64,000 bases of DNA from an uncultured virus (IMG/VR IMGVR_UViG_3300032397_003421) (IMGVR_UViG_3300032397_003421), one strand, 5' to 3'. Shown: positions 7,310-60,092, counted from the stretch's first letter. A program made the numbers and translations. Notes: generated from the sequence alone by a model not told the origin.

Positions 7310-7876
7310 ATGAAAAGATATAAATCACAATTTATGGAAACTTTTGTAAATAATCAAGAAGATACAATGAAGATTATTACTAAAGTTTTAAAACAAAATA
7401 AAATAGATTTTTGTTTTATAGGTGGGGCGATACTTCCAGAATATGGATATAATAGAACTACAGAGGATATCGATATTCTCATATCAAAAAAAGATAAAGA
7501 AAAATTTTTAATGCTAACTGGAACTTATTTAAAAAGAAAATTTAAAGATGCTCAAAAATCTTTTTATTGGAACAACCCAAAAACACAAATAGATGTAATA
7601 TATAGTGGTGATCGAGCAGGAGATATGACTAAAGGAATTGAGTATAAAGAACCTTATGAAATAGATAAGATAAAAAATACTATTCCTAAACTTACTTTAG
7701 AAAATTTAATTCAATATAAATTATGTTCTGGTACTTATGGTAAAGGAAGAATGAAAGATTTTGGAGACATTCAGGAACTTATTGTTATAAATAATCTTCC
7801 AAAAAATTATGCAGATTTATTTAGAAAAGATCTAAAAAATAAATATATCGAAATTTGGATTGACGCAATGGAGTGA
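7310..7876 (+). CDS. Pol-beta-superfamily nucleotidyltransferase with MKRY leader
   Basis: FIGGAIL...RTTEDIDILI motif, C-terminal R-x-KD-x-x-D; N-terminus MKRYKSQFME. Confidence 0.75.
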   Translation: MKRYKSQFMETFVNNQEDTMKIITKVLKQNKIDFCFIGGAILPEYGYNRTTEDIDILISKKDKEKFLMLTGTYLKRKFKDAQKSFYWNNPKTQIDVIYSGDRAGDMTKGIEYKEPYEIDKIKNTIPKLTLENLIQYKLCSGTYGKGRMKDFGDIQELIVINNLPKNYADLFRKDLKNKYIEIWIDAME

Positions 7877-7919
7877 ACTTAACACAATTCTAAAGAGGGT
7901 GTATTTTTACGGCAGTTTT
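7873..7919 (-). mobile_element. 47-bp miniature derivative of the tnpB element (fused right and left ends)
   Basis: GTGAACTTAACACAA matches 2817-2831; CTAAAGAGGGTGTATTTTTAyGGCAGTTTTATAAA matches 4133-4167. Confidence 0.85.
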
Positions 7920-8108
7920 ATAAATAATTTTTAATAAAAGTTGCAAGAAATCTACAAAATTTTTAGCTTCGTAATAACTTACTAATATTTAATTATATTA
8001 ATAAACTAATTGTATTTATAAATTAGTTTATTATTTATATAAAAAAAAATAAAAAATATTAAATAATTCTTAATTTTGAAATGTTAAAATTATTAAAAGG
8101 AGAACTTA

Positions 8109-8465
8109 ATGAAAACAATAAAAAATAATAAAAAACAAAAAAATCGTTTACAAATACGATCTAAAAAAGAGTATGATAAACAAATACAAAATCTTTCACA
8201 TGAAACACAAAATTTTGGAGCTTATCTTTATTATAGAGATATTGATGAATTCTTCACAGAACAAAATAAACCATTTTATGATAAAGTAAATGCATATAGA
8301 CTATTCCTATTATTTGGTTTTATCTATATTAAAGAAATCAAAAAATGGAGAACAGAAAGAGAAGATCTACCAGAAAATGAAATGATGAAAATGTTAAAAA
8401 GCATCATAGAAGAATCTTTTCTTGTTTTCAACTATAAAAAGGAAGAAAAAAGTGAAATTTTATAA
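8109..8465 (+). CDS. hypothetical protein
   Basis: ORF with AGGAG RBS. Confidence 0.65.
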   Translation: MKTIKNNKKQKNRLQIRSKKEYDKQIQNLSHETQNFGAYLYYRDIDEFFTEQNKPFYDKVNAYRLFLLFGFIYIKEIKKWRTEREDLPENEMMKMLKSIIEESFLVFNYKKEEKSEIL

Positions 8466-8735
8466 AAAAAGTTGTAAAATAATAGATAAAAATATATAAA
8501 AACAATAAAAGTGTCATTTTTTTTAAAAATCACTTATACTAATAAATAATCAGAGGATATAATTTTCTCTGTTTACACAGAATCTAAACGCCTTGGAACG
8601 TGAGATTAGCAATAGATTACTAATTTAAAAAGAATATTTATTCTATTGTAAAAAACAAGTTTCTCCAAGGCTACTTGCTGTGTAGGCAATAGAATATTAT
8701 ATAACAAAAACCTCTGAATAACATCGGAGGTTTTT

Positions 8736-14709: not shown

Positions 14710-15450
14710 ATGAAAAAATATATACCATATAAGGATAATGAAAAATTCCATAGTAGTAAAAAAAGTCATTTCTTTAATGAAGCAGTTTTTAGACCAGATA
14801 ATTATGCTAAAGAATTATATAATATAATGGTTAATATTATAGAGGAATATAAAAATTCTAATTTGAAATATGATTATCAAATATGTAAGGTATTAACTGA
14901 TATTTTTTCAAAATATAATATTGTATTTATTCCAAAAGGTACTTATTATAATAATGGATATTTTTCTGGAATTAATGAGATGGAATCTGGAGAAAAATCT
15001 TTATTAATTAGAATTCTTTGTAGTTTATCTATAGGGGATTTATTTAAAAGTGATAATTTAAAACGAGATTTTTTAAAAGATTTTAAACAATTAATATTAC
15101 ATGAATTAGTTCATAGGGGACAATATATATCATTTAATAGAAATAAAATACAAAATGAATTAATTCAATTTTCAAAAAATAAAATTGATTTAGCATATTA
15201 TTCATTAAAACCTGAAATTATGGCTTATGCTTGTTTAATTGTTGAAGAATTAAGATTTCAAGATTTAGAAGATTCAGAAATCTTAAAATTTATTAATAAT
15301 AGAGATAAGTTTAAAAGATATGAAAGTAAAACTTATGATTTATATAAAGAAATTTATGGTAAATCTAATGTATTTACAAGATTACTTAAATATATTTATG
15401 AGTATATTAAAGGAGATTTAACTAAAAATATAATTGAAATAGGAAGTTAA
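14710..15450 (+). CDS. HExxH zinc-metalloprotease-like protein, paralogue 1
   Basis: HELVHRGQ plus downstream EIMAY; MKKY leader. Confidence 0.7.
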   Translation: MKKYIPYKDNEKFHSSKKSHFFNEAVFRPDNYAKELYNIMVNIIEEYKNSNLKYDYQICKVLTDIFSKYNIVFIPKGTYYNNGYFSGINEMESGEKSLLIRILCSLSIGDLFKSDNLKRDFLKDFKQLILHELVHRGQYISFNRNKIQNELIQFSKNKIDLAYYSLKPEIMAYACLIVEELRFQDLEDSEILKFINNRDKFKRYESKTYDLYKEIYGKSNVFTRLLKYIYEYIKGDLTKNIIEIGS

Positions 15451-16010: not shown

Positions 16011-16784
16011 ATGAAAAGATATAAATCAGTATTTGACAGATTAAATGAACCTGTTAATACTTTTTATAATGGGGAATATCATACTCCTCCCAGTAGAACA
16101 AGTGAATTTTTAGTTGAAGCTGTATATAGACCGGATAAATATGTTAATATAGTTTATAATCATCTTAAAAGTATTTTAAAAATTTATAATAAATCTTTTA
16201 AATATGGAGAATTAGTTTGTGAATTTTTAACAGATAAGTTTAAAGAATTTAATATTATATTTAATTATGAAGGAAGTTTTAATTCTGATGGAAGAAAATA
16301 TGCTATAAATTCAATGGATACGGGAGTCAATTCTTTAACTATCACTATTCAGTGCAGTCCTATTATTGATCAATTATTTTTAAGTATTGATTTACAAAAA
16401 TTATTTTTACAATATTTTAAGGAACTTATAGGGCATGAGTTAATACATAGAAGTCAATCTATATCAATAAAAAACTATACATTACAAAAATATATAAATA
16501 AATATATTAATATTGCGCAAGGAGTGGGTTATTATGCAGATAAAGCCGAACTTATGTCCTATGCCTGGCAAATAATTGAGGAGTTGAGATTTCAAGGAGC
16601 TTATGATATGGATATTTTAGAATATATAAAAGATATTGGTAAACATCCTGGATATTCTTGTTTAATATATGAAGAAGTATACTTAAAATATTATAGAAAT
16701 ACTATGGTAATAAATAGGTTAATAAAGTATATCTATGAATATCTAAAAGGTAATATAAATATTAATGAAATATATTTAAAATAA
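16011..16784 (+). CDS. HExxH metalloprotease-like protein, paralogue 2 (track start 15996; MKRY start 16011 preferred)
   Basis: HELIHRSQ plus ELMSY. Confidence 0.7.
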   Translation: MKRYKSVFDRLNEPVNTFYNGEYHTPPSRTSEFLVEAVYRPDKYVNIVYNHLKSILKIYNKSFKYGELVCEFLTDKFKEFNIIFNYEGSFNSDGRKYAINSMDTGVNSLTITIQCSPIIDQLFLSIDLQKLFLQYFKELIGHELIHRSQSISIKNYTLQKYINKYINIAQGVGYYADKAELMSYAWQIIEELRFQGAYDMDILEYIKDIGKHPGYSCLIYEEVYLKYYRNTMVINRLIKYIYEYLKGNININEIYLK

Positions 16785-16950: not shown

Positions 16951-17652
16951 ATGAAAAGATATAAAAGAAAATTTACAAATGATTTTATGGGATATACATT
17001 ACCATTGATAGAAATGGTTCAGAGACCAGAAAATTATATAAATATATTAATAGAAAAGATAAAAAATTTCTATGAGAAAAATGAATTTTTAAATTTAAAT
17101 GATTTAATAGTATCTATAAATTCTTATTTTATAAATGAAAAAATAGAATTTATAGAAAGAGAAAAAAGTTCAAAGTTTGATAGTGGTTTATTTTCTGCTG
17201 GATATAAACCCAAAACAGATACAATAATTTTATTTTATACTACTGATATTTCTAATGCTTTTAAAATTAAAAATAAAAAGCATGATTATACAGATTTTAA
17301 ATGGTTTTTAGATGATTTTATTGATTTTATAGGACATGAAATAATTCATAGAATGCAATCTGTAAATGATAAAGTTAATAATATCAAAGCAATGTCAAAT
17401 GAAAATGAAAAACTTCATTATTCTCAACCCAAAGAAATTATGGCTTATGTTTGGTTAATAGTACAAACATTTAAAATGAATGGTAAAGATAATGATTATA
17501 TTAAATTCGTTTTATCAAATAAAAGAGATGATCATAATATAAAAATAATAAACTATATACCAGCATTTAAAAAGTATTATAATTTATTTGATAAAGATTC
17601 TAATGTAATGAAATTACTATATAAATATATTTATCAATATATTAATAATTAA
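16951..17652 (+). CDS. HExxH metalloprotease-like protein, paralogue 3
   Basis: HEIIHRMQ plus EIMAY; MKRY leader. Confidence 0.7.
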   Translation: MKRYKRKFTNDFMGYTLPLIEMVQRPENYINILIEKIKNFYEKNEFLNLNDLIVSINSYFINEKIEFIEREKSSKFDSGLFSAGYKPKTDTIILFYTTDISNAFKIKNKKHDYTDFKWFLDDFIDFIGHEIIHRMQSVNDKVNNIKAMSNENEKLHYSQPKEIMAYVWLIVQTFKMNGKDNDYIKFVLSNKRDDHNIKIINYIPAFKKYYNLFDKDSNVMKLLYKYIYQYINN

Positions 17653-17711: not shown

Positions 17712-18101
17712 ATGTCAAGTAAAAAATTTGTTCCCTATACGAGTTATTTTGGAGAAAGTAAAGAAGTTAGTAAAAAATCTAAATCTTCAAGAATTCTTGA
17801 AAGAGCTATTAAAGAGCTTTATTCAATTAAAAGAAGTTTAAATAAACTTAAAGAAGATGAAGAAATAAGTGCTGAAGATATTGCTGATGCAGTAGATTCT
17901 GTTAATGAAGTTATACAAGATATTATACCTATAGTTGGTGCGGCAGATCCTGCAATTGCTGAACTTATTGATGCAGCTAAAGAACTTGAAGATTTTAATG
18001 AAGAAGATTTCATAATGGAAGCTGAAGAAGATGAAAAAGATTCTGAAGATGATGAAGATGATGAAGAAGAGAAAAAAGAAGCTTGCAAAAAAAAGAAATA
18101 A
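17712..18101 (+). CDS. acidic prohead-core-like protein
   Basis: Highly acidic with repeated hydrophobic-x-E sites (ILE, IKE, LKE, IME); TACTAATA upstream. Confidence 0.55.
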   Translation: MSSKKFVPYTSYFGESKEVSKKSKSSRILERAIKELYSIKRSLNKLKEDEEISAEDIADAVDSVNEVIQDIIPIVGAADPAIAELIDAAKELEDFNEEDFIMEAEEDEKDSEDDEDDEEEKKEACKKKK

Positions 18102-21151: not shown

Positions 21152-21215
21152 AATATATAAAAAATAGTTTAATTTTTTAAATATTTTTTATATATTATAT
21201 ATAGGTAATTAAAAT

Positions 21216-21875
21216 ATGAAAAAATATATACCATATAAAATTGAAGAATCTAAGAATATTTATCAAAAAAAATTATTAAATAGTTCTTATATTATCAAAT
21301 TTAACGCATTAATTCGATTACAAGAAAAAGCATTATTTTTCAATAAAATTAGATATAAATTTTCTGAAACATTTCAAATGCCAGAAATTATAGATATGCT
21401 TAATGATTTAGAAAAAAATAATATAATAGAAGATTATGTAATTGGAGAAGCTACAGCTCTTTTATATTATTCTACTCCTCATCTAACAGATGATATTGAT
21501 GTTTTTATTAAAAAGAAACAAAAAGGAATTTTATTTAGTTTTACTGATCTATATGAATTTTTAAAAAATAAATATAAGGCAAAAGAAGAGGGTGAATTTT
21601 TAATTATAAAAGGTAATCCAATACAATTTTTAGTTTCTGGAGATAAACTTACTCAAGAAGCTTTTAATCATCCTAATAATGTACAGATAAGAGGTAAAAA
21701 ATTTAAGATATTTTCGTTAGAATATCTAATAGCTATTATGTTATTTTTAGGTAAATCTAAATATAGAGAAAGATTAAGAATTATAAAAGATGAAAATAGA
21801 TATAATGTGAATATATTAAATAATATTTTACATAATTATAGTTTATTAGAAAAATGGATTAAAATAGAAATATAA
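21216..21875 (+). CDS. nucleotidyltransferase-like protein with MKKY leader
   Basis: YVIGEATALLYY...LTDDIDVFI; SLEYLIAIML. Confidence 0.7.
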   Translation: MKKYIPYKIEESKNIYQKKLLNSSYIIKFNALIRLQEKALFFNKIRYKFSETFQMPEIIDMLNDLEKNNIIEDYVIGEATALLYYSTPHLTDDIDVFIKKKQKGILFSFTDLYEFLKNKYKAKEEGEFLIIKGNPIQFLVSGDKLTQEAFNHPNNVQIRGKKFKIFSLEYLIAIMLFLGKSKYRERLRIIKDENRYNVNILNNILHNYSLLEKWIKIEI

Positions 21876-27203: not shown

Positions 27204-27638
27204 ATGAAATTATATGAAAGTGCTTTTAGTAGAACAGATAAAATATTAAATTGTGCAATTGGATCAAAAAAATATGAAGTAGATTTAACTGAAAATATAA
27301 AAGAGTATACTCATTTATTTGGGCCAAAACTTATAAATATAGAAAAAGTATTTGGAAAACAACTTAAATTAAAAGGTGGACCTAATCATGCTGAGTATTC
27401 TTTTAAGGGGGTTATACCTATAACCCCAGAAGGACTTTTAGCAACTGCTTATCAATTAACAGGAGATAAAATATTTAAATCTTTAAATTCTGTAATAATT
27501 ACAATATTTGGAAAAGTACAAGGTTCTTTTGATTATTGGGTAGAAGTTCCAGATTATAATCATACAGATATAGAAATAGATTTTACTTATTTATACCCCG
27601 ATACTCTTGAGATTCAAATTGATATAGTGGCAGATTAA
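27204..27638 (+). CDS. hypothetical protein with short leader (MKLYE)
   Basis: ORF in track. Confidence 0.6.
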   Translation: MKLYESAFSRTDKILNCAIGSKKYEVDLTENIKEYTHLFGPKLINIEKVFGKQLKLKGGPNHAEYSFKGVIPITPEGLLATAYQLTGDKIFKSLNSVIITIFGKVQGSFDYWVEVPDYNHTDIEIDFTYLYPDTLEIQIDIVAD

Positions 27639-27872: not shown

Positions 27873-28076
27873 GTGAATCTAAGTTCTAATACTCAGTATA
27901 TAATTCGTAAATATATTAAAAATAATAAATATAGCATAATTCTTAAAACATTTAAAATTTCTTTCACAGATACTATAGATATAATTATATTATTACAAGA
28001 AGAATATACAAAGACTACAGATGAAAATATTAAAAAAGCTATAGATGAATTAAGAAAAGAAAGGTTCAAGAAATGA
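27873..28076 (+). CDS. hypothetical protein
   Basis: ORF coupled to 28073. Confidence 0.45.
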   Translation: MNLSSNTQYIIRKYIKNNKYSIILKTFKISFTDTIDIIILLQEEYTKTTDENIKKAIDELRKERFKK

Positions 28077-29182
28077 AAAGATATAAAGTTTATTTTAAAG
28101 AGAATTCGCATCCTATTATATTTCATCCTTTTAAAGCTTGGTATTTTCCAGATAAAGATGAATTTGTTAAATTTAATGCAAATAAAGATCATCTTAATTA
28201 TGTTAAATCTATGTATCAAGCATACAATGAAGGTGCTATTAGATTTTATATAAGTCCTATTGAAGTAGTTATAGAAACACTTCAACAACCTGATAATAAT
28301 TTATATTTTAAAGTTATAAAATTATTATCAAAAAATATGGAAGATTTTAATAAAGTTAAAACTATCATATGGGATTCAATTAAAGACAGAAAAACAAAAA
28401 TATTTAAAATAAAAAAATCTATTGAAATTCCTCTTGAAAAAGGTAATCATTTTAAATATGGAAAATTTAAAAATAAAGATGCTATATATGATAGTAATTA
28501 TATAAATGAAAAAGGAGATCTTATCATAATTACTGATACAGGTAAGGAAATCCCCGCTTGTAAAATAAGACTAATACAGGAAAATATTTTAGAAGAAGAT
28601 TTACGATTATCTGATCTTACTAAGCATGCTGGAGTATCTGATCTTACTAGAATTTTTATGAAAGATAGACAAAAAATAAAAGGTGCTGGTAATATATCTG
28701 CAAAATTAGTCAAAATGAAAGTTAACAAAAAGAAAGGCTGGGTAACATTTGTATTCTTATCTGAGCCTACTTATACATTTGATACTCAGATAGTAAAACT
28801 AAAAACTTCTGATAAGAGTATGAGGAAAGATAATCTATATACACAAGAAATTAGAATTTTGGATATATTTTCTTTATTAAAATCAAATCCAGAATTTAAA
28901 TCATTTAAAGATGTAACTATTGAGGAGATAAAAAAAGTTTTAAAGAATGCTGATGTTCAAGTAAGTTGTGATGATCCTAGTTTTTGGTGGCAAGGGGATG
29001 CATGGACACTTACCCAATTTGATGCTTCTATAATTCCTTGTGAAATTGAACCTAAACACTGGGGGAAATTTCATAATTATGGGGATAATTTTTTATGTAA
29101 GCATTTGAGTTTAATTTTTAATTCCATAGATTTTTACATTCCTATTATGGCAAGAATGATTTATAAATATTTAAATAGATAA
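28073..29182 (+). CDS. multi-domain MKRY-leader protein with C-terminal SWIM-like Zn motif
   Basis: VSCDDPSF...LCKHL; internal IQE/LEE candidate cleavage sites. Confidence 0.65.
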   Translation: MKRYKVYFKENSHPIIFHPFKAWYFPDKDEFVKFNANKDHLNYVKSMYQAYNEGAIRFYISPIEVVIETLQQPDNNLYFKVIKLLSKNMEDFNKVKTIIWDSIKDRKTKIFKIKKSIEIPLEKGNHFKYGKFKNKDAIYDSNYINEKGDLIIITDTGKEIPACKIRLIQENILEEDLRLSDLTKHAGVSDLTRIFMKDRQKIKGAGNISAKLVKMKVNKKKGWVTFVFLSEPTYTFDTQIVKLKTSDKSMRKDNLYTQEIRILDIFSLLKSNPEFKSFKDVTIEEIKKVLKNADVQVSCDDPSFWWQGDAWTLTQFDASIIPCEIEPKHWGKFHNYGDNFLCKHLSLIFNSIDFYIPIMARMIYKYLNR

Positions 29183-31407: not shown

Positions 31408-32631
31408 TTATATCTTAAATTCGTATTTTTGAAATTTTTGATCTTTGTTATCTTTTACTGATTCTCTGAGTTTATGAATATCATTACCAAATTTATTCTC
31501 AAACATAGAAACTTTTTTAACTGCTTCTAATAGAGATCTTGATTTAAGAATTTGTTTTTGAATGTCTCTTACAGCCGGTTTATTTCTTACAACTGCTTTA
31601 TAATATTCAATAACTTCTTTTACTGGAGCTTTTGATTCTTTAACTTCAATTCTTTTTTTCTGGGTAATTGCTTCTTTTTTAGCAGCTCTTACTGCTGCCA
31701 TTTTATCTTCATCTGATTCTTTTTCATCTTCTTCATCATCTTCTGATTCTTCTAATTCATCATCATCATCTGAATCATCTTCTTCTGCTTCTTCCATTTC
31801 TTCTTCTTCATCTTCAGAATCGTCTTCATCAGTTTCTTTTACTAATTTTTTCTTTTTAGAGGTAATTGATTCTTTTTTTTCTTCTTTATCATCTTCCTCT
31901 TCTTCTGCTTCATACAAATCTTCATCATCTTCAAAGCCAAATGCATCATCTATAATATCATTTCCAGTATCTATAAAAGAATCTTCTTCATCATCAAATT
32001 CATATCCATATTCTTCTTCAAGAATTTTTTCAAGTTTAGATATTGTTTTTTCTGCAAGTTGAAGTGCTATTTTTGTTTTATTAATCTTTTTACTCATATT
32101 TTTTCTTTCCTCTTTAAACTTAGTAATATCTTGTTCTCTAAGTTGAGTATCTTCTTCATATATTTTTAAATCTGCATTTCTTTTTTCTATTTCTTCTATA
32201 AATAGTTTAATATCTTCTTCCATTTTTACTCTATCAGTAGAAAAGAGTTCAATATCTTCTTTCATTTTTTCTATTGATTTTTGAGTATCTTTATTAACAG
32301 CTTTTTCAACAATTACTTGCGCTTTTTGAAGGTTTTCTTTAAGAGTATTAATTGTTTCACAAGCTACTTGATACTTTTCAGTAAGAGTTTCTAAAGTTTC
32401 CTTAGATTCCTTAAGTTCTTTTTGAGCTAGTTCTTTTTGCTCAGCAAGTTTAGTTTGAATTGACATAATTGCAGTTTCAACTTGCGCTTTTTGTTCTGCC
32501 ATTTCTGGAATAATTGTATCAGAAACTTCTTTTAGCTCTTTTATAGCTTCAACGTAGTTTTCTTTAGCAATTGCTTCCTTTATGGTAGATTTAATTTGGT
32601 TTTTAATTGAGAGTTCCAAATATTTATCCAT
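31408..32631 (-). CDS. putative nested in-frame scaffold protein (MDKYLELSIKNQ...)
   Basis: Internal TACTAATAAAT (32661-32671) and GAGGT RBS before in-frame ATG at the protease/coiled-coil boundary. Confidence 0.6.
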   Translation of the reverse strand: MDKYLELSIKNQIKSTIKEAIAKENYVEAIKELKEVSDTIIPEMAEQKAQVETAIMSIQTKLAEQKELAQKELKESKETLETLTEKYQVACETINTLKENLQKAQVIVEKAVNKDTQKSIEKMKEDIELFSTDRVKMEEDIKLFIEEIEKRNADLKIYEEDTQLREQDITKFKEERKNMSKKINKTKIALQLAEKTISKLEKILEEEYGYEFDDEEDSFIDTGNDIIDDAFGFEDDEDLYEAEEEEDDKEEKKESITSKKKKLVKETDEDDSEDEEEEMEEAEEDDSDDDDELEESEDDEEDEKESDEDKMAAVRAAKKEAITQKKRIEVKESKAPVKEVIEYYKAVVRNKPAVRDIQKQILKSRSLLEAVKKVSMFENKFGNDIHKLRESVKDNKDQKFQKYEFKI

Positions 32632-33276
32632 GTTTTTTACCTCTACCGTTTTTTCTTTTAATTTATTAGTAATATCTTTTTCAATAATTTTTATTTCTTC
32701 TTTTATACTTTCTTCTAAATTCTCTTGAGTAGCATATACATTTTGAGATGGTTTTCTTACCCAATCGCAGTTTTCAAACTCGAAATCTTCAGTCATAACC
32801 GTTTTTCCGTCAGATTCAGATAAAGTCCCAAAGGCTACTGTACTAAAACCAACTTTACCACCGGCTTTTGCTTTTTCAAGTAATAATGATCCTATTGCAC
32901 CAATACAATATAAATCTGCTGTTGCTATATTTTCACCAACTTTAAAATTTTTCCAGACCCCGGCAGTATCTAAAACACTACCATCTCCCTCTGCTGCATG
33001 GTCCGCCAAACAATCGGCCCCTTCAAATGTTTTTTTCTTTTCTACTTCAGTCCATAATTCTTTTGGGTAAATTCTTGAATTTGCATTTTCAATAAATCTA
33101 GTAACTGGTACATTTTTAAGTACACCACGACATTCATATTGTTTACCTGCTACAGCTTCAATAAATTTAGTTTCTATTTTAATATCATCTATATTAGGTA
33201 AATAAGAAATACTTTCAATAAGTAATATCTTATTTTTTTGTTTTGCTCTTTCTTCTAATGAAATCTTTGTACTCAT
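31408..33276 (-). CDS. prohead protease (T4 gp21-like) fused to coiled-coil/acidic scaffold
   Basis: NANSRIYP, ADH, VGFSTVAFG, DWVRKPS protease motifs; then long coiled coil and D/E-rich tract. Confidence 0.85.
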   Translation of the reverse strand: MSTKISLEERAKQKNKILLIESISYLPNIDDIKIETKFIEAVAGKQYECRGVLKNVPVTRFIENANSRIYPKELWTEVEKKKTFEGADCLADHAAEGDGSVLDTAGVWKNFKVGENIATADLYCIGAIGSLLLEKAKAGGKVGFSTVAFGTLSESDGKTVMTEDFEFENCDWVRKPSQNVYATQENLEESIKEEIKIIEKDITNKLKEKTVEVKNMDKYLELSIKNQIKSTIKEAIAKENYVEAIKELKEVSDTIIPEMAEQKAQVETAIMSIQTKLAEQKELAQKELKESKETLETLTEKYQVACETINTLKENLQKAQVIVEKAVNKDTQKSIEKMKEDIELFSTDRVKMEEDIKLFIEEIEKRNADLKIYEEDTQLREQDITKFKEERKNMSKKINKTKIALQLAEKTISKLEKILEEEYGYEFDDEEDSFIDTGNDIIDDAFGFEDDEDLYEAEEEEDDKEEKKESITSKKKKLVKETDEDDSEDEEEEMEEAEEDDSDDDDELEESEDDEEDEKESDEDKMAAVRAAKKEAITQKKRIEVKESKAPVKEVIEYYKAVVRNKPAVRDIQKQILKSRSLLEAVKKVSMFENKFGNDIHKLRESVKDNKDQKFQKYEFKI

Positions 33277-33733: not shown

Positions 33734-33735
33734 AA

Positions 33736-34233: not shown

Positions 34234-34467
34234 CTACTTTTCAACCTCTATATTAGGAAATTTTGATTTAACTGCAAATTTAACTTTTAATATTTCCTCT
34301 GGTGTACCATTTGCAGATACTCTTGCTAAAGCATTTCTTGCATGTGATTCATCTGGAATAGGATATTTTCTTTCTTTAGGAAAAACAAATGCGCTATCAG
34401 GAAGATCTCGTTTTTGTTTATATGTTAATGCATCTTCTTTAAAATTAAATGAATTATATCTATTCAT
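34234..34467 (-). CDS. DUF6582-like protein with MNRY leader
   Basis: RDLPDSAFVFPKERKYPIPDESHARNALAR. Confidence 0.8.
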   Translation of the reverse strand: MNRYNSFNFKEDALTYKQKRDLPDSAFVFPKERKYPIPDESHARNALARVSANGTPEEILKVKFAVKSKFPNIEVEK

Positions 34468-34469
34468 AT

Positions 34470-34907: not shown

Positions 34908-34920
34908 TTTTATATTTCTT

Positions 34921-35211
34921 TTATTTTATATTATTTTTTAAATTTTTCATACAAAGGGTAACAACTTTTTTAATATCTAATTCAAGAAATTTATCTGGAT
35001 CTTTCTCATGTTTTTTAAAATATAAATATAACGCTTTTTTAAGCATATCTGGTAATAATTGTCCAAAACTCCCAGCTATTGCATTTTCTGCATTATCATA
35101 TAACATTTCTCCCATTAATTCAAACAATACTTCTTCATCCATAAGAATTTGAATAGTCTTATTAAAAATCTTTTGTGTATCTATATTTTCTTTTATTTTA
35201 TATCTTTTCAT
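34921..35211 (-). CDS. small MKRY-leader protein
   Basis: MKRYKIKE. Confidence 0.7.
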   Translation of the reverse strand: MKRYKIKENIDTQKIFNKTIQILMDEEVLFELMGEMLYDNAENAIAGSFGQLLPDMLKKALYLYFKKHEKDPDKFLELDIKKVVTLCMKNLKNNIK

Positions 35212-35486
35212 ATTATGTCTTTCATTAAATTTATTATAGCTTTTGCTGCATTTTTATTATCCAATTTAACATTTGCCTGTACTATACTTAAACACATTCT
35301 AGCTATTGCATCATCTACAGAACCACCAAATTTTTTAGTGTATTCTTCAGAATATTCTTTAGCTATTAATCTTAATTTTTTATCTAATTCATGAGAAACA
35401 ATTATTGTCTCTACCTCCTTTAATCTATTAAAATTCTTTGATAAATATGAGTCTTCCTCTTTAAATTTTCTTGTATATCTTTTCAT
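35208..35486 (-). CDS. small MKRY-leader protein
   Basis: MKRYTRKFKEE; TACTAATA 33 nt upstream. Confidence 0.7.
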   Translation of the reverse strand: MKRYTRKFKEEDSYLSKNFNRLKEVETIIVSHELDKKLRLIAKEYSEEYTKKFGGSVDDAIARMCLSIVQANVKLDNKNAAKAIINLMKDII

Positions 35487-35513
35487 TTAGGCCTCGTAAT
35501 AAGTTTATATTTA

Positions 35514-35780
35514 TTAGTAATAAAAAATATTAAAACTAACTTCTGCTTCTTTTATTCTATCTAACCCCATTTCTACTTGTGAATTTAAATCTGCTTTAAT
35601 ATTTGCTTTTAATATTACATCTTCAGATAAATCTGTTTCATATTTAATTTCTGTATTTAATGATTTTAAAATTAATTCTTTATCTTTATAAGATTTTTTA
35701 AAATTAATTTTTGGTTTCATATTAAATTTAAATTTAAACATATAGATCAATATAATAAATATATGCGAATAAACTACCAA
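35514..35780 (-). CDS. hypothetical protein (start uncertain)
   Basis: ORF in track. Confidence 0.4.
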   Translation of the reverse strand: MVVYSHIFIILIYMFKFKFNMKPKINFKKSYKDKELILKSLNTEIKYETDLSEDVILKANIKADLNSQVEMGLDRIKEAEVSFNIFYY

Positions 35781-48929: not shown

Positions 48930-49100
48930 ATGGAATACGAAAAAATAATATTTAATTTTCTAAAAGAATATAAAAGAAAACTTGAAAAAGTGGTAGCAAT
49001 GGAAAATATAGAAAGAGAAAAAAGTATAACTTTAACAGATTTAATATCTGAAACTTTAATTAAGGAATTTGATTTAGATAATGAAAAGACATCACTATAA
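48930..49100 (+). CDS. 56-aa possible ribbon-helix-helix protein inside the IS
   Basis: MEYEKIIFNFLKEYKRKLEKVVAMEN...ITLTDLISETLIKEF; GAGG RBS; overlaps tnpA start. Confidence 0.5.
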   Translation: MEYEKIIFNFLKEYKRKLEKVVAMENIEREKSITLTDLISETLIKEFDLDNEKTSL

Positions 49101-49479
49101 ATCAGATTGTAATTATCATATTATTATATGTCCAAAATATAGACATAAAGTAATGCATAATGAAATTAAAGATTCCTTGAAAATTAAATTTAAAGAAATC
49201 TGCGATAATTATAATTATGAGCTTTTAGATTTTTCTATTGAAATAGACCATGTTCATTTTGCCTTAAAACTACAACCAACTTATTCTATAGGCTCGGTTG
49301 TTAGAAACTTAAAGTCTATTACTGGATATTATTTGTTTAAAGATTTCCCTATTTTAAGAAAAAAATATTTTTGGAATAGTGGATTTTGGACTAATGGGTA
49401 TTTTGTTTCAACGGTAGGTCATGTCTCAAAAGAAAAAATTATGGAATATATAAAATCACAAGAAAATTATGATAACTAA
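49081..49479 (+). CDS. tnpA: IS200-type HUH (Y1) transposase
   Basis: YHIIICPKYR, DHVH, LKS, FWTNGYFVSTVG, YIKSQ. Confidence 0.95.
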   Translation: MKRHHYKSDCNYHIIICPKYRHKVMHNEIKDSLKIKFKEICDNYNYELLDFSIEIDHVHFALKLQPTYSIGSVVRNLKSITGYYLFKDFPILRKKYFWNSGFWTNGYFVSTVGHVSKEKIMEYIKSQENYDN

Positions 49480-50713
49480 AAATCAACAAATAAAGGATTC
49501 TCTTTCTGCTACAAGAGAAAAAAGAAAAACACAAACTTGTAAAGTTTATGAGTTGAAGTTGTCTGAAAATAAGTTCAATTTAAAACAAATTGATTTTTTG
49601 CATAGGATTTTCCTTGAAGCAAAATGGGTATATAATGATATTTTAAATTTTAATGATTTAAAAAACTATGATTGCAAAAAGAAAGAAGTAGAAATTATAA
49701 ATAAAGAGAAAGAAAAGGAAATAAGAGAATTAAAAGTTTTAGGTAGTCAAATTAAACAAGAAATATTACAAAGAACATGGTGTTCTATTAAGTCTCTTTC
49801 TACTAAAAAGAAAAAAGGCAAAACAAAACAAGTAGGTAGACTAAAATTTAAAAGTCAAGTGAACTCTATTCCACTAAAACAATATGGAATAACTTATAAG
49901 TTTCAAGATGGTGGTTTAAAAATACAAAATTGTAAATTCTTATTTCAAATTAAAGGATTAAAACAAATTCCAAAAGAAGCTGAATTTGCAAATGCTAATT
50001 TGATTAGAAAACCTTCTGGATATTATCTCAAGGTTACCTGTTTTCTTCCAAAAGAAAATAAAGAGATAAGCAAAGAAATAATAGGTATTGATTTTGGAAT
50101 TAAAGATGATTTAGTTTTGAGCAATGGAATTAAATTTCAAACAAAATTCACAACATCCTCCGAAATTAAAAGAGAGCAAAGAAAATTATCTAAAAAGAAA
50201 AAAGGTAGTCATAATTATTGGAAACAAAAAAATAAAGTAGCTTTAGCTTATGGGAAACAAAATAATAAAAAACAAGATTGCAAAAATAAAATTGTAAATT
50301 ATTTAAAAAATAATTATTCTCATATAGCAATTCAAAATGAAAATATAAAAGGATGGCATTCAGGACTATTTGGAAAACAAGTGCAACAATCAATTTTGGG
50401 TGGAATAATTTTGGAATTAAAACAACTTCCGCAGACACACATAGTTGATAGATTTTTCCCAAGTACAAAACTTTGTCCTGAATGTGGGACTTTAAACAAA
50501 CCAACTTTAGCAGATAGAGTATATTTTTGTGACTGTGGGTATTCTCAAGATAGAGATATTCATTCTGCAAAAAATATTCTTTTAGAAACAATACCTATGG
50601 AATGTAGGAAATTTAAGCCTGTGGAGTTTAACATCTCTGCAATAGATTATTTAAAATCTTTTGTAAGTGTGAACTGTGAAGCAGGAAGATACAACTCTTT
50701 AGAGTTGTGTTAG
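49469..50713 (+). CDS. tnpB: TnpB nuclease
   Basis: IGIDFG, AIQNE (atypical RuvC-II), PSTKLCPEC, CDCG..DRDIHSA. Confidence 0.9.
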   Translation: MITKNQQIKDSLSATREKRKTQTCKVYELKLSENKFNLKQIDFLHRIFLEAKWVYNDILNFNDLKNYDCKKKEVEIINKEKEKEIRELKVLGSQIKQEILQRTWCSIKSLSTKKKKGKTKQVGRLKFKSQVNSIPLKQYGITYKFQDGGLKIQNCKFLFQIKGLKQIPKEAEFANANLIRKPSGYYLKVTCFLPKENKEISKEIIGIDFGIKDDLVLSNGIKFQTKFTTSSEIKREQRKLSKKKKGSHNYWKQKNKVALAYGKQNNKKQDCKNKIVNYLKNNYSHIAIQNENIKGWHSGLFGKQVQQSILGGIILELKQLPQTHIVDRFFPSTKLCPECGTLNKPTLADRVYFCDCGYSQDRDIHSAKNILLETIPMECRKFKPVEFNISAIDYLKSFVSVNCEAGRYNSLELC

Positions 50714-51326: not shown

Positions 51327-51548
51327 CTAGCCATACCCATGCCCAGACCCATCTCCAGACCCAGACCCATCTCCAGACCCATACCCATCTCCAGACCCAT
51401 ACCCATCTCCAGACCCAGACCCATACCCATACCCATACCTAGACCCATACCCATGCCCAGACCTATCTCCAGACCCAGACCCATACCCATGCCCAGACCT
51501 ATCTCCAGACCCATACCCATACCCGGTATCAATTATTATTTTTTCCAT
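51327..51548 (-). CDS. Gly-x (GYG/GSG/GDG) low-complexity protein
   Basis: 6-nt tandem repeats; overlaps the stop of the DUF6948-like gene. Confidence 0.65.
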   Translation of the reverse strand: MEKIIIDTGYGYGSGDRSGHGYGSGSGDRSGHGYGSRYGYGYGSGSGDGYGSGDGYGSGDGSGSGDGSGHGYG

Positions 51549-54329: not shown

Positions 54330-55517
54330 TTAATTTAATTCTACTAAATATTTAATTGTACATTGTTCAGATTTATAAACTATGAATTCATTATTTATAA
54401 GATCAATTCCCCCTTTTGCAAATAATGAATCATAGTCTCCTTTAGACTTAAGATTTTGATATGACATAGAATACATTTCTGAAGTATGTTTATCAACTCG
54501 ATACTCCATTCCTGTATTAACTTCATATAACGCCATAAAAGCTTGTTTAGCATTCCCCTTTACCCAATAACTACCGCTTAATGAGGTATAACCCAATGCC
54601 TTCTTGCATTTATCCGCCATGTATATACCATCACCAAACATACTTCCTGTATGTACTGCTCCTGTAGGTCTTATAAGCAAACTTGATTTAAGTATATTAA
54701 GCCAATTTTCATTTCTACTACCATGCCATAAAAGTTTAGTCCAGTGTTTTACAGATTCTTTTTTCTGAACTTCAAATTTATCTTTTGATACTTTATGAAT
54801 TACTTCATATAATCCACTAAATTTATTTGATTCTGTTCCCATCATTTCTTTAACTTTATCAATTACTATTTGATCAGTTACTTTAAAAATCTTAACTCCT
54901 AATATATCTTCTAAAGTTTTATCTGAATCAATAGATGCTGTATTAATACTTACTTGTCCTCTCATTACATCCACTGCATCCTGCTCTCTTTCAAGTATTG
55001 CTTTTCCTTTTATTTTATCACCTATTCCATTAAGAATAAAATCTTGAACTTTTTTCATTTTTCTTGGAATAATAGTATAAAGTTCAGTAAGTTTATCATC
55101 AATATTTGAATTTGAAATTTTTTTATATTTCAACATATCAGCTATTTGATTTAGAATTTCTTGTGCTTTATCAATTTGTGCTTCAGTAACTTGATCCGCT
55201 GAAACTGTATAGTTATCCAATATAGATGCTTTTGAATAACTTTGTAAATCTGAAAGAAGCTTCATTATAGTAGAATTAGTAACATCTTTAAGAACTGCTG
55301 TTTTAATTGTGGATTTAAGACTGGTAATATCTTTATATCCTTTTTTGATTTTACTTTTATATATCTTATCCCAATCTAACATTGGATAAGTCATTGTTTG
55401 TTCAGTTAATCCTACTCTACCATATTTCACTAAAAAAGTAGAATTATTTTCTATCATAGTATAATACTTATTATTATTATTTTCTGAGCTAACCATTATC
55501 AATTCTATTTGTTTCAT
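54330..55517 (-). CDS. PARP-like ADP-ribosyltransferase (WGR + helical + catalytic domains)
   Basis: NNNKYY...YGRVG...KIKKGY (WGR), LYTIIPR (regulatory), LWHGSR..N, MFGDGIYMA...KALGY, NNEFIVY (H-Y-E triad). Confidence 0.9.
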   Translation of the reverse strand: MKQIELIMVSSENNNNKYYTMIENNSTFLVKYGRVGLTEQTMTYPMLDWDKIYKSKIKKGYKDITSLKSTIKTAVLKDVTNSTIMKLLSDLQSYSKASILDNYTVSADQVTEAQIDKAQEILNQIADMLKYKKISNSNIDDKLTELYTIIPRKMKKVQDFILNGIGDKIKGKAILEREQDAVDVMRGQVSINTASIDSDKTLEDILGVKIFKVTDQIVIDKVKEMMGTESNKFSGLYEVIHKVSKDKFEVQKKESVKHWTKLLWHGSRNENWLNILKSSLLIRPTGAVHTGSMFGDGIYMADKCKKALGYTSLSGSYWVKGNAKQAFMALYEVNTGMEYRVDKHTSEMYSMSYQNLKSKGDYDSLFAKGGIDLINNEFIVYKSEQCTIKYLVELN

Positions 55518-56269: not shown

Positions 56270-56728
56270 TTATGCTATTTCTATGAAATATGCTATCCCA
56301 GAATCAAATAATTTCCCTTTTTCAAAAAATAATTTAAGTGCTCCTATTTTAACTTCTTGAATATAGTTATAATAACCTTCTTGTAATTTTATACATTTTT
56401 GCAATAATGATTCTACTATCATTTTAACATCATTAGGATGAGTAGTATGAAGATCTTTAAAATTCTTTTTTATAGGAGGAAGTGTTATAATAACTGCGTG
56501 ATTTTGAGTATCTTTTTTATTATGTATGTCTTTTCTCCAATCTATAATAGCACATATACCAGTAGATTTTGACCATATAGCATAAATAGTTGCTTCGTCA
56601 TCATATTCAGTAATTATTTTATTTATTGCATTAGTAATCACTTTATTTACTATTTCTTTTGAAAATTGATCTTTATACCTTTTAACATATTGATCAATAG
56701 CATGATGAGTATCTATTATTTTTCTCAT
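56270..56728 (-). CDS. hypothetical protein, possible RelE/BECR-like RNase fold
   Basis: DTHHA.D.Y..R N-terminus and AVIITL strand. Confidence 0.4.
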   Translation of the reverse strand: MRKIIDTHHAIDQYVKRYKDQFSKEIVNKVITNAINKIITEYDDEATIYAIWSKSTGICAIIDWRKDIHNKKDTQNHAVIITLPPIKKNFKDLHTTHPNDVKMIVESLLQKCIKLQEGYYNYIQEVKIGALKLFFEKGKLFDSGIAYFIEIA

Positions 56729-56888: not shown

Positions 56889-58901
56889 ATGGTTAATATA
56901 AACAAAGAACAGTTAATAGATGATAAATATAACGATTTATCAATTGAAGAAAAACAAACTCTATATAAGATGTATTTTGATAAAGAAACTAGAGATGAAC
57001 TTAAAAAACAAGTTGAAAGTATAATATATTATTCTACTCCTCCAACACCAGAAGAATTTCTTGATCCTACTAATGGTTGGTTATCTGGATCATTTGTACA
57101 AAGTATATATCCATGGGTAAAAGCTGAATTTTTAGAATGTTTAGATAAAGAAAAAAAATATAATAAAATAGTACAATATGGATCAACAAGGATTGGTAAA
57201 ACATATCTAGCAATATTACTTATTACTTATACAATAGTATTTATACATTTTCTTAGAGAACCCGCAATGTATTATGGATTATCACCTCTTACAGATCTTG
57301 CTATATACATTATATCCTTTAAATATGATAAAACTAGAGAATTGTATTTACGTCCTATGTTTAAAATGATGGAAAAATCAGATAGATTTATACAAGTAAA
57401 ATTTCAAGATAAAGTAGCAACAGAACAAAGAAGGTTAGGTCGAGATAAAATTGTATATAGTAAAGCTTCAACTTCAGGAGAAATTACTTTAGCATCTGGA
57501 TTACAATTACAATTAGGTAATGATGATGCATTAGCTTTTATAGGGTCTAATATAATTTCTGCCTATATATCAGAAATTTCATTTTGGGTTGAAAATGCAG
57601 GAGCAACAGAAGAAAATATTTTTAGATTATATACAGATATTGCAGATAGAATTAAAGCTACTGTTGGTGAAGATTATTTAACATTTCTTTATCTTGATAC
57701 TTCTGCAAATAATGTAGATTCAATAATAGAAAAACATATACTTACTGAATTAAGATATAGAGAAGGAGTAAGATTCAATTGGGTAACTAGATGGGAAGCT
57801 CTTCCTAATAATGGTAAAAATTTTAAAAAATGGCATAAAACTGGAGAAACATTTAAAGTAATTACTGGTAATGGATCTATTCCTGCAGCTATAGTTACAG
57901 ATAATAGACAATTAGAAGATATACCATTAGATTTAATTATCAATGTTCCAATAGATTCTTATGATGCATTTAAAGATAATCTTATAAAAAGTATTAAGGA
58001 TATCGCTGGTAGGCCCACGGTGTCAGAGAATAAGTTTATTAATAATGTTGAACTAATTACAAACATGTTTAATAATTCTTTATTAAACAATATTGAAGGA
58101 GCTATAATAGCAGATTCTAATTCAATGCCTGAAAAATTATTATGGAATCAAATTAATACAAATTTATTTTTTCATAGAACACCTTCTAATTCTTTTCAGA
58201 TAAATAGGGCAATTGGAGCTCCTAGATTTGTTGGATTAGATACAAGTTATTCTATAAATGGAGATGCTACAGGAATAACAATTCTTCATAAAGAGTACGA
58301 TATAGAAAAAAAAGAATGTGTTTATGTAGTAGATTTAAGTTGTGCTATAATAGGAAAAGAAAAAGGAATAAATTTAGAAGCAGTTCCATATTTATTATTA
58401 GATTTAATTTCTGAAGCTGGATTGCCTATTTATGCTCTTTATATAGATACTTTTCAAAGTGAAACAGGTAAACAATTTTTGGAAAGAAACAATGTAAAAG
58501 TAATAAAACAAAGTGTTGATAGAGATGTAGTTCCTTATCAAATACTACTTACGACTATGATTAATGGTTTAGTTAAATCAGGAAGAAATATATTTTTAAA
58601 GAATAATTTACAATGTTTAATGGTTACCAAATCTCAAACAGGCAAAGACAAAATAGATCATCCAGAAGGGGTAATAAATAATAAATATAATAGTGATTGG
58701 AATAAGTCAATTTGTGGTACTTTTGCTAAAGATGTAAGTGATTCACTAGCTAATGCTTTATATGGTGCGTTTGTATCGAATATATCTCCTACAATTATAT
58801 ATCAAGAAGAAAATAAAAGATTTTCTAAAGATATAATTGATACTAAAGATATTATAAATAAAGCATTAATAAATCTTTTGAAAACTCGTCCACATCTATA
58901 A
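56889..58901 (+). CDS. terminase large subunit
   Basis: Walker A GSTRIGKT, Walker B AYISE, RNase-H-like RFVGLDTS...GDATG, DTFQS, KIDHP...KDVSD. Confidence 0.9.
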   Translation: MVNINKEQLIDDKYNDLSIEEKQTLYKMYFDKETRDELKKQVESIIYYSTPPTPEEFLDPTNGWLSGSFVQSIYPWVKAEFLECLDKEKKYNKIVQYGSTRIGKTYLAILLITYTIVFIHFLREPAMYYGLSPLTDLAIYIISFKYDKTRELYLRPMFKMMEKSDRFIQVKFQDKVATEQRRLGRDKIVYSKASTSGEITLASGLQLQLGNDDALAFIGSNIISAYISEISFWVENAGATEENIFRLYTDIADRIKATVGEDYLTFLYLDTSANNVDSIIEKHILTELRYREGVRFNWVTRWEALPNNGKNFKKWHKTGETFKVITGNGSIPAAIVTDNRQLEDIPLDLIINVPIDSYDAFKDNLIKSIKDIAGRPTVSENKFINNVELITNMFNNSLLNNIEGAIIADSNSMPEKLLWNQINTNLFFHRTPSNSFQINRAIGAPRFVGLDTSYSINGDATGITILHKEYDIEKKECVYVVDLSCAIIGKEKGINLEAVPYLLLDLISEAGLPIYALYIDTFQSETGKQFLERNNVKVIKQSVDRDVVPYQILLTTMINGLVKSGRNIFLKNNLQCLMVTKSQTGKDKIDHPEGVINNKYNSDWNKSICGTFAKDVSDSLANALYGAFVSNISPTIIYQEENKRFSKDIIDTKDIINKALINLLKTRPHL

Positions 58902-59011
58902 TTTTTTAAATAAATGTTGTAAGAAGTCTATAAGTTTTTAACTTATAAATAGTTCATTTACTAATAATTACTAATAAGTTCGCTAAAGAGAAAATTATAC
59001 AGGTGATATAG

Positions 59012-59383
59012 ATGGTAACTTTAAATTTTGAAGTTGTTGGCAATAAAGAAATTTCTGACCAATACTCATCAGAAAATTTGACATTAACTGGAAAGTTGGA
59101 AAGAGAAATGTATGAATTAACATCTACAGATGGTTGGATTACTAATTCTATTTCTAAAATAGGTACTATATCAAAAATTATTGCAAATGTAGAAGATCCA
59201 AGTAATACTCTTGCTACAGCAAATTTAAGAATTGTTTATGATTCATCTGGTATTGTTATTCCCATAAATGGTATATTTGTTTATTCTGTAGATACTGTAT
59301 TTGCTAATTTAATTACAAGTATAGATATGTCTACAAATAGTATTCTTCCAATGAATTGTAATCTTAGTATCTTAGGAATTTAA
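59012..59383 (+). CDS. hypothetical (likely structural) protein
   Basis: Double TACTAATA upstream; AGGTG RBS. Confidence 0.6.
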   Translation: MVTLNFEVVGNKEISDQYSSENLTLTGKLEREMYELTSTDGWITNSISKIGTISKIIANVEDPSNTLATANLRIVYDSSGIVIPINGIFVYSVDTVFANLITSIDMSTNSILPMNCNLSILGI

Positions 59384-59390
59384 ATTTAAA

Positions 59391-60092
59391 ATGAAAAGAT
59401 ATGTAAGATATTTTGGTATAGATGATTCATTTAAAATTACAGAAGCAATTATTAATCCTAATTTATATTTAGATCAAATTAAAAAAGATTTAAATGATTT
59501 ATCATTCTTTAAATTCAAAAATGTTTCTTTAAAAAATATATCATTTAAATTAAATATAATTTTTAGAAAAAGTAAGATTCAATTTATACCTCAATCAAAT
59601 ATAAATGATGATCCTTATGAGCCAAATATTAAATTTGGTATAAATAGTGGGGCAACTATATCTAATAAAACAAATGATATAGGTATCTTTATAAATGAAA
59701 ATATTGTAAGAAGTTTGCAGAATAAAGAGGCATACCCATTTTTTGTAAAATGGTTACTTTTTGTTTTAAAACATGAATTAGTTCATAGAGGTCAACATTT
59801 AAAGGTTAAAGATGCTAAATTAAGAAATGAAGTATTTCAAAAATCTCCAAAAGATAGACGAGAATATTTATCTGATAAACAAGAAATTATGGCAAGAGCT
59901 TGGGAAATTATTGAACTTTTTAAATTATTTAATTATCAACAAGATAAAATTCGGGAAATATTAAAATCAAAAGAATTAGAAAAATATCAAAATTTCACAT
60001 TAAGAGTTTATCATGATGAATTTACTATGAAGGATTGGCAATTAAAATTACTGTATAAATATATGTATATGTATCTTGAGGAGGATGAATAA
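59391..60092 (+). CDS. HExxH metalloprotease-like protein, paralogue 4
   Basis: HELVHRGQ plus EIMAR; MKRY leader. Confidence 0.7.
   Translation: MKRYVRYFGIDDSFKITEAIINPNLYLDQIKKDLNDLSFFKFKNVSLKNISFKLNIIFRKSKIQFIPQSNINDDPYEPNIKFGINSGATISNKTNDIGIFINENIVRSLQNKEAYPFFVKWLLFVLKHELVHRGQHLKVKDAKLRNEVFQKSPKDRREYLSDKQEIMARAWEIIELFKLFNYQQDKIREILKSKELEKYQNFTLRVYHDEFTMKDWQLKLLYKYMYMYLEEDE

Follow-up and report, generated by a model that had tools for sequence, protein, structure and literature searches.

Why should many mostly unrelated proteins of one phage begin with the same short peptide? The question is raised by a 64 kb stretch of DNA from an uncultured virus (IMG/VR IMGVR_UViG_3300032397_003421; the whole stretch analysed is called the window below), which has a GC content of ~25% and reads as a portion of a large phage genome; most of its open reading frames (ORFs) belong to no Pfam or PHROG family. 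One of its proteins has an identical database counterpart, encoded on a contig of 147,505 bases. A preliminary description had listed 16 ORFs of the window that start with MKRY or a similar peptide and run on to a hydrophobic-x-Glu segment, and had proposed that this leader is a capsid-loading tag removed by a gp21-like protease. The explanation favored here is that the peptide, M-[KEN]-[RK]-Y-x-x-x-[FY]-x-E, is a capsid-targeting propeptide of the phage T4 type, removed after hydrophobic-x-Glu; on the sequence evidence we hold this to be probable, if well short of certain. The leader probably marks capsid cargo.

The leader and its distribution

All 16 N-termini, together with that of a comparator at 24386, translate as previously written. 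An M[KN][RK]Y start is found in 15 of the 84 genes of the window (a set comprising the longest non-overlapping ORFs, with nine likely spurious ORFs dropped and two small genes added), or about one gene in six, against an expectation of ~0.17 derived from the rate of internal [KN][RK]Y tripeptides (37 in 18,541 residues). At the level of DNA, the pattern ATGAAWARRTAY occurs 19 times (1.55 expected), a count that none of 100 shuffles reached. A wider codon pattern has 21 matches: 15 open ORFs of at least 77 amino acids (aa), four open ORFs of 14-35 aa, and the remaining two (at 16669 and 35138) are stray and out of frame. Clear leaders number 13 (starting at 7310, 14710, 16011, 16951, 21216, 28073, 33733, 34233, 34467, 34907, 35211, 35486 and 59391). 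The leaders end in hydrophobic-x-Glu, as had been claimed before, and the tagged genes are grouped at the head module. The term "unrelated" fits most of the proteins, the mature parts of 17 candidates including 11 singletons (BLASTP, E <= 1e-3), but not a family of four with an HExxH motif or a nucleotidyltransferase-like pair. The leader is absent from all 15 window genes annotated with a function other than in the head (endonucleases, transposases, a primase, a ligase, a PARP-like protein, a STAS protein and tail-fibre-like proteins).

The 55 distinct leaders of the window and its relatives yield the consensus M-K/E-R-Y-K-R/P-x-F-x-E. Position 2 is K in 32, E in 14 and N in 5 of them; position 3 is R in 44 and K in 11; Tyr4 is demanded by the search pattern; position 5 is K in 30, and position 6 is R in 21 and P in 13. 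The corresponding counts are F 14, Y 11 and K 11 at position 7, F 26 at position 8, E 19 at position 9 and E 29 at position 10. Phe or Tyr stands at position 7 in 25 leaders and at position 8 in 30, and two residues before Glu9 or Glu10 the sequences have F, Y, L or I. Short leaders end at residue 8-14.

In a genome of such low GC content, the shared start might be a nucleic-acid or translation-initiation signal (A-rich early codons, or a regulatory RNA or DNA element) and not a functional peptide. ATGAAAAGATAT is found exactly nine times in the window, Lys is the most frequent second residue across the gene set (25 of 84 genes), and four short leader stubs, discussed below, open no long ORF. 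What this explanation accommodates poorly is the frequency of synonymous variants (among 50 pattern matches in three relatives, Tyr4 is encoded by TAC instead of TAT in 14, and Arg3 by both AGA and AGG), the extension of conservation to Phe8 and Glu10, and the tolerance of one to three extra N-terminal residues before the motif (the prefixes MMVERY, MENERY and MVKRY); nor does it account for the absence of the leader from the 15 non-head genes and from the distant contigs described next. No common motif is seen immediately 5' of the leader ATGs. The synonymous codons, the tolerated prefixes, the lack of a common upstream motif and the retention of the leader in nine of ten matches in a complete relative (see below) together point to selection on the peptide, and to a signal that resides in the peptide rather than the DNA. 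A purely nucleic-acid signal is therefore considered very improbable.

The preliminary description had itself called for a control for AT-rich start bias, and the relatives provide one. A protease-profile search gave 35 contigs. At protease identities of 44% or more, all 10 contigs have the leader on ORFs upstream of the protease gene (48 of the 117 ORFs there; an eleventh such contig had only 177 bases upstream), the densest of those counted having 15 of 23 ORFs tagged in the 8 kb before the protease. At protease identities of 40% or less, the leader occurs in 0 of 24 contigs (0 of 186 upstream ORFs). Since these 24 distant contigs include equally AT-rich ones, of 26-27% GC, the leader is not general to AT-rich phage genes; it is specific to one clade. 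In eight IMG/VR contigs whose capsid proteins are 67-100% identical to that of the window, a cluster of tagged small genes stands immediately before the protease-scaffold gene, its cargo partly different from contig to contig, and the protease of most of these relatives itself begins with a related peptide (MNKYKTLQE, MSRYRYLED or MNYKSLQE). By capsid protein, the closest cultured relatives are only 22-23% identical. In the closest of them, Pseudomonas phage QdP_Psa3, a long "head maturation protease" is encoded beside the capsid gene, and no common leader is seen in 18 neighbouring genes. The densest tagged array seen anywhere is in a contig with a 44% identical protease (L031:1108-7555, + strand), where ~20 consecutive small genes before the protease begin MKRYKS, MEKYKS or MKYKS and continue to L-x-E.

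A complete relative, G002 (155,573 bases, with terminal repeats), allows the leader to be followed gene by gene. Its pattern is found in 27 of 241 ORFs (~0.9 expected); among the genes named by PHROGs (replication, nucleotide metabolism, tail and baseplate) the tag is seen on one only, encoding a phosphoribosyltransferase-like protein. An anaerobic ribonucleotide reductase encoded by G002 suggests that the host is anaerobic. The tagged window genes have ten distinct best matches in G002, nine of which fit the leader pattern, with a median identity of 50%, and tagged genes are more diverged from G002 than are other genes (median identity 50% vs. 61%). The tag is kept across relatives on differing proteins, and it is gained and lost in modular fashion. 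Thus, the window copy of one gene (56270-56728) begins just past the MKKYERYQE segment of its G002 counterpart, with a ribosome-binding site of its own. The DUF6582 domain of the 34467 protein starts just past the leader, as noted earlier: FKE ends at residue 11, and the matches to Pfam and PHROG begin at residues 12 and 14, respectively. Elsewhere in phages, DUF6582 and DUF5661 are internal or C-terminal domains, or stand behind other N-termini, without the tag; in Streptomyces phage Kela, for example, DUF6582 is C-terminal in a 281-aa protein.

The head module and its fused protease

The protease-scaffold gene lies directly upstream of the capsid gene (Table 1), with six tagged small genes (33455-35486) directly upstream of it in turn. 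The capsid protein has a conserved candidate maturation site, [IM]-x-E78/N-x-YST (the slash marks the putative cut). The gp21-type protease domain that had been claimed for the 31408-33276 protein is borne out by Foldseek and by hhalign. The sole Foldseek matches of the modeled domain at E <= 0.001 are three chains of T4 gp21 (5jbl; E 2.7e-6, probability 1.00, TM 0.51-0.60), in keeping with a fold of the gp21/herpesvirus-assemblin type. In hhalign, the protease and four relatives align with five standalone Peptidase_S77 proteases (which score 75.6-98.9 bits on PF03420) over 162 columns with 97.8% probability and E 1e-12; ENANGRIYP is common to both profiles, in which the invariant His93 and Ser145 align. 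By these profile and model comparisons the N-terminal domain of the 622-aa protein is a divergent member of the T4 gp21 protease family; the remainder looks like a scaffold. Sequence searches with the protease against the Protein Data Bank (PDB), by single sequence and by profile, gave nothing meaningful, and tblastn against cultured phages gave no match. Inside the otherwise variable linker between the two parts, the signals of a candidate nested gene start are conserved in five of five homologues; the nested product would be the scaffold part alone, beginning MDKYLE (MDK[YF]xE across homologues).

From these components a pathway can be proposed. The tagged proteins would be made late, together with the head proteins. 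The basic-aromatic N-terminal part of the leader (Tyr4 and the aromatic residue at 7 or 8) would bind them to the scaffold core forming in the procapsid, where the scaffold-fused protease domain would cut after hydrophobic-x-Glu, at residue 8-14 in short leaders and at 18-36 in the HExxH family. The mature proteins would remain in the head, some probably to be delivered with the DNA, others possibly as core components that get degraded.

The last alternative could be the whole of it: the leader might be a protease-removed propeptide of prohead core and scaffold-accessory proteins only, which, like T4 gp67 and gp68, build the head and are then degraded, there being no injected payload. Several head-proximal tagged proteins are in fact small and acidic (D+E vs. 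K+R is 20/12 for 33455-33733 and 29/17 for 34470-34907), the protease-scaffold protein of relatives has a related N-terminus, and the candidate nested scaffold product would begin MDK[YF]xE. Among the tagged proteins, however, there are some of 188-416 aa that have enzyme-like motifs and whose genes lie far from the head genes, and ~27 kinds per genome are many for structural helpers; a role confined to the core thus seems unlikely. Core and injected fates are not mutually exclusive, because T4, in the account of PMC5694885, puts one tag on both.

A different protease might be the one that reads the tag. N-terminal degrons occur in bacteria, and G002 encodes a ClpP-like protein elsewhere in its genome (phrog_1827, E 5.6e-44), so that the leader could be a degradation or regulatory tag that times protein removal and has nothing to do with the capsid. 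The window, however, has no ClpP-family match; the tag co-occurs with the gp21-type protease lineage, clusters beside the protease and is found on the head protease itself in relatives; and the Glu-type site at its end is what a gp21-family enzyme would be expected to cut. (Gp21-type proteases cleave after Glu according to PMC5694885 and PMC9026906, the former naming those of T4, phiKZ and SPN3US.) A degron of this kind is accordingly given little credence, and a propeptide of the T4 type remains the preferred reading.

Candidate cargo, stubs and timing

The propeptides of the four HExxH paralogues are two-part, an MK[RK]Y start being joined by a linker of variable length to [FLI]-x-E, for a total of 18-36 residues, and homology between the paralogues starts directly after FNE, LVE, LIE and ITE in four of four, just as described earlier. 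The same boundary after Glu holds in seven of seven homologues fetched from a collection of 5.8 billion proteins, which contains only eight members of the family. Every one of 12 family sequences has H131, E132, H135 and E169, the HExxH motif plus downstream Glu that a zincin-type metallopeptidase would show. In the AlphaFold2 (AF2) model of the first paralogue (14710), residues 1-27 have pLDDT <50 and the rest is folded (model pLDDT 70.2). Foldseek with this model found nothing at E <= 0.001, and its best VIA-align Z, 6.5, is inside the range that the tool terms common for helical models. The third paralogue (16951) is 66% identical to the product of G002 29644-30354, which begins MERYKRKYDE.

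Four leader stubs, which had not been listed before (13584, 19076, 27640 and 33455), carry the start without a long protein behind it and look like relics of cassette replacement. The stub at 13584 resembles the leader MKRYKRKFDPYYHQLGRFNE of an HExxH gene located at that place in G002. Read-through of stop codons was ruled out as their explanation: between 19076 and 19199 there are several stops, 27640 and 27716 are in different frames, and 33455 ends in TAA and is followed by a separate short ORF. In one relative (L006), GIY-YIG homing-endonuclease-like genes lie inside and beside the cargo cluster (4889-5632 and 6918-7787, + strand), one of them after a 31-aa tagged stub.

Such traffic might by itself have spread a short conserved 5' segment, by cassette exchange or homing, with no consequence for the proteins. 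Besides the stubs, one of which (33455) matches the protease start of another lineage, and the GIY-YIG genes within a cargo cluster, the nearly identical leader DNA of 34907 and 35486 would fit such a by-product of recombination. Neutral spread does not explain, on the other hand, why the motif is kept as a peptide across proteases of 44-100% identity despite changed codons and changed non-key residues, or why the Glu boundary falls exactly at the domain start in the HExxH family despite variable linkers. Recombination at leader DNA, which was also proposed for the internal-protein loci of T4, is compatible with a functional tag; as the sole cause of the shared start it is highly unlikely.

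An upstream motif bears on the timing of expression. The window has 15 copies of TACTAATAA where 3.75 are expected; each points the same way as the genes around it, and most stand 20-60 nt ahead of a start codon. Copies are found in front of the genes for the capsid protein and the protease, the cargo cluster and genes of the tail region, as well as 14710, 17712 and 19199 and the operons that lead to 28073 and contain 59391. In G002 there are 33 such sites, including sites ahead of the capsid gene, baseplate and tail genes and several tagged genes. The motif is read as a candidate late promoter. A 21-nt motif, AAAAATAGTTTAATTTTTTAA, is identical at 7252-7272 and 21160-21180 (+ strand), before the tagged nucleotidyltransferase-like genes 7310 and 21216, with three looser copies elsewhere, and may represent a second promoter class.

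Not everything favors targeting to the capsid. Since 7310 and 21216 have this different conserved motif upstream, they may be expressed at another time, and a primase is encoded in the same + strand block as nine of the tagged genes. Of the 16 leaders, three (17712, 27204 and 46760) are weak or degenerate. That of 46760, MKKYE, lacks an aromatic residue at position 7/8 and Glu at position 10; the G002 orthologues of 17712 and 27204 have better copies, MSKKYKLYTSLFGE in the case of 17712. Hydrophobic-x-Glu is a short motif, frequent in Glu-rich proteins. Tagged genes are not lost more often than others, a G002 match existing for 13 of 16 tagged and 44 of 68 other genes. The window protease has no Pfam match at E <= 0.01, nor have five of five fused homologues, and its domain model has a mean pLDDT of 70.5, the other four of five models being at ~30; another protease could act on the tag, given the ClpP-like protein of G002. 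Some of the tagged acidic proteins may be parts of the prohead core, degraded rather than injected, and the likeness to the T4 sequence could be convergent. The "enzyme-containing payload" of the preliminary description was an overstatement: the HExxH motif is invariant but comes without an assignable fold, and the nucleotidyltransferase Pfam matches are weak, with one past cutoff.

An extension of the capsid-targeting explanation is offered tentatively, and is on balance somewhat unlikely. The clade (uncultured, AT-rich, myovirus-like) would devote about a tenth of its genes, judging by the 27 of 241 ORFs in G002, to a fast-diverging tagged "injectome" of ready-made proteins. One T4-like address peptide would load them into the head, and they would enter the cell along with the DNA, a first-strike kit for anti-defence or takeover that would include four HExxH putative proteases, nucleotidyltransferases and the phosphoribosyltransferase-like protein. 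The leader-coding DNA would serve at the same time as a recombination joint for swaps of cargo cassettes, which would leave stubs behind.

What is at stake is readily stated. Should the tag act as it does in T4, the proteins carried in the head of an uncultured phage could be listed from sequence alone; these are prime candidates for anti-restriction and host-takeover factors, and nearly all of those found here are of unknown family. The address-and-cut system of T4 would then extend far outside the T4-like phages, into a lineage whose protease is fused to the scaffold, and would be scalable to dozens of cargo types. Were the injectome extension true as well, the tag would be a purely computational readout of the injected proteome of uncultured phages. 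A 10-residue tag could also serve as an engineering handle for packaging in this lineage once its host is known.

Table 1. Leader-bearing genes, leader stubs, head genes and upstream motif sites of the window (a slash marks the end of the leader or propeptide)
Feature	Position	Strand	Remarks
Leader protein MKRYKSQFME/, 188 aa, nucleotidyltransferase-like	7310..7876	+	Translation; weak Pfam AbiEii/DUF2204 matches under cutoff; G002 orthologue begins MVKRYKRIESQFME
Leader stub KRYKRQFDIYNHSIDSVRYDLKVV then stop, 25 aa	13584..13661	+	TTG start; abuts start of Big_5 gene
HExxH paralogue 1, 24-aa propeptide MKKY...FFNE/AVFRP	14710..15450	+	TACTAATAA motif at 14626
HExxH paralogue 2, 36-aa propeptide MKRY...FLVE/AVYRP	16011..16784	+	Alternative ORF start 15996 (MKELKMKRY)
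HExxH paralogue 3, 21-aa propeptide MKRYKRKF...PLIE/MVQRP	16951..17652	+	Translation, paralogue alignment
Variant leader MSSKKFVPYTSYFGE/ (MSSKKFVPY..FGE), acidic 129-aa protein	17712..18101	+	TACTAATAA 35 nt upstream
Leader stub MKKYRWRFTKE/QENF..., 25 aa	19076..19153	+	Several stops before 650-aa gene at 19199
Leader protein MKKYIPYKIEE/, 219 aa, DUF2204 nucleotidyltransferase	21216..21875	+	Pfam PF09970, 27.1 bits vs. cutoff 20.3; 78% identical to MERYTPHKFEE protein of G002
Degenerate leader MKLYE...	27204..27638	+	G002 orthologue, 56% identity, begins canonical MKRYKRFKE
Leader stub MKRYNSIKLQKEKYN then stop, 15 aa	27640..27687	+	
Leader protein MKRYKVYFKE/, 369 aa, no known family	28073..29182	+	G002 orthologue begins MNRYKPFFED
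Major capsid protein, 488 aa	29634..31100	-	tblastn to annotated major head proteins, 22-23% identity; profile match to PDB 9ukm 'Gp23', E 2e-6
Predicted prohead protease fused to scaffold, 622 aa	31408..33276	-	Residues 1-195, gp21-family protease domain (invariant H93, S145); remainder coiled coil, then acidic tract
Candidate nested scaffold gene start	32629..32671	-	TACTAATAA (TACTAAT(A)) motif, GAGGT ribosome-binding site, invariant internal ATG (Met216)
Leader stub MNRYKTLQEKVEGI then stop, 14 aa	33411..33455	-	Matches protease N-terminus of relatives (MNKYKTLQE...)
Leader protein MNRYIRYYSE/, acidic, 92 aa	33455..33733	-	Orthologues MNRYIRYYSE and MKRYKRHFIE
Leader protein MKRYKQNFKQIIKE/, 103 aa	33922..34233	-	Orthologues MKRYKPVYKIKE, MEKYVPKFKIKE, MERYTSIFAE
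Leader protein MNRYNSFNFKE/ + DUF6582 domain, 77 aa	34234..34467	-	Pfam PF20223, 30.9 bits vs. 27.3; phrog_16160
Leader protein MKRYIRKFKE/, 145 aa	34470..34907	-	Weak DUF5661 match
Leader protein MKRYKIKE/, 96 aa	34921..35211	-	No G002 homologue
Leader protein MKRYTRKFKE/, 92 aa	35208..35486	-	First gene of head-proximal cargo cluster; TACTAATAA at 35511-35519, 24 nt upstream
Doubtful member MKKYEIDRSG...ILTE/, 113 aa	46419..46760	-	Within tail-fibre region; G002 orthologue begins MKKY, fails leader pattern
Comparator without leader, 152 aa	56270..56728	-	50% identical to 174-aa G002 protein beginning MKKYERYQE/
HExxH paralogue 4, 18-aa propeptide MKRYVRYF...KITE/AIINP	59391..60092	+	Second gene behind TACTAATAA pair 58959/58969
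TACTAATAA sites, candidate late promoters	8537, 13118, 14626, 17668, 19159, 26208, 58959, 58969, 60782	+	
TACTAATAA sites, candidate late promoters	31303, 32663, 33316, 35511, 37492, 47207	-	

Other features of the window are recorded for completeness. A PARP-like protein (54330-55517, - strand) with WGR, PARP regulatory and PARP catalytic domains (Pfam PF00644, 79 bits) is encoded beside an ATP-dependent DNA ligase and has no leader; a pentapeptide-repeat protein with a C-terminal DUF5758 domain is encoded at 4217-4951 (- strand). Elements of the IS200/IS605 type comprise a lone TnpB (2883-4031, - strand) and a TnpA + TnpB pair (49081-50713, + strand); the IS605-type TnpB was uninformative about the host, its best genome matches being only 51% identical (Alkalibacterium). 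A tandem repeat at 51331-51524 (period 6/18, ~32 CCATAC-like units) overlaps several short ORFs on both strands. The window contains no tRNAs.

Comparison with known systems

No published description of this clade's leader was found: for phages known from metagenomes or lying outside the T4 group, the literature on leaders resembling the capsid targeting sequence (CTS) of T4 gave only T4 and SPN3US papers plus one mention in a reference list (subscription journals were outside the scope). Encapsulin cargo-loading peptides offer a parallel from outside the viruses, in that a short terminal peptide directs unrelated enzymes into a shell of the HK97 fold; these tags mostly sit at the C-terminus and no protease cleaves them off, and the encapsulin shell is not a virus.

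Like the CTS of T4 (carried by IPI, IPII, IPIII and Alt, and removed by gp21), the leader of this clade is a ~10-residue peptide on otherwise unrelated proteins; as in T4, a gp21-family protease is encoded, and variable cargo genes adjoin the head genes (PMC3012670, PMC9026906). The "distinct" targeting code that had been postulated is not borne out: given that M1, K2, Y4 and E10 of the T4 capsid targeting sequence MKTYQEFIAE, as PMC8442874 presents it, recur in the leader, and that position 7 or 8 is aromatic, the code is very close to that of T4. Section 2.6 of PMC9026906 gives the T4 propeptides as 10-19 residues, with targeting mainly by residues 4 and 7 and processing by residues 8 and 10, and states that gp21 itself may carry one. 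The differences are matters of register, charge and scale. The aromatic register is moved by one in about half of the 55 leaders, the T, Q and E of T4 at residues 3, 5 and 6 correspond here to basic residues (R, K, R), and one family has long two-part propeptides of 18-36 residues. Compared with the four named internal proteins of T4, more are tagged here (15 in the 64-kb window, 27 of 241 ORFs in the complete relative). The lineage is also distant, with a protease that is fused to the scaffold and falls below the Pfam S77 thresholds and a capsid protein only remotely like the 'Gp23' chain.

What is proposed for this clade resembles the situation in phages phiKZ, 201phi2-1 and SPN3US, where, in the account of PMC5694885, a gp21-related protease cleaves many head-internal proteins after Glu and the propeptides are thought to target the prohead. 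Their motif is given there as A/S/G-x-E, most of their propeptides exceed 100 residues, and no common N-terminal tag is described in that account save for two paralogues; in the clade examined here, in contrast, a common 10-residue tag is found.

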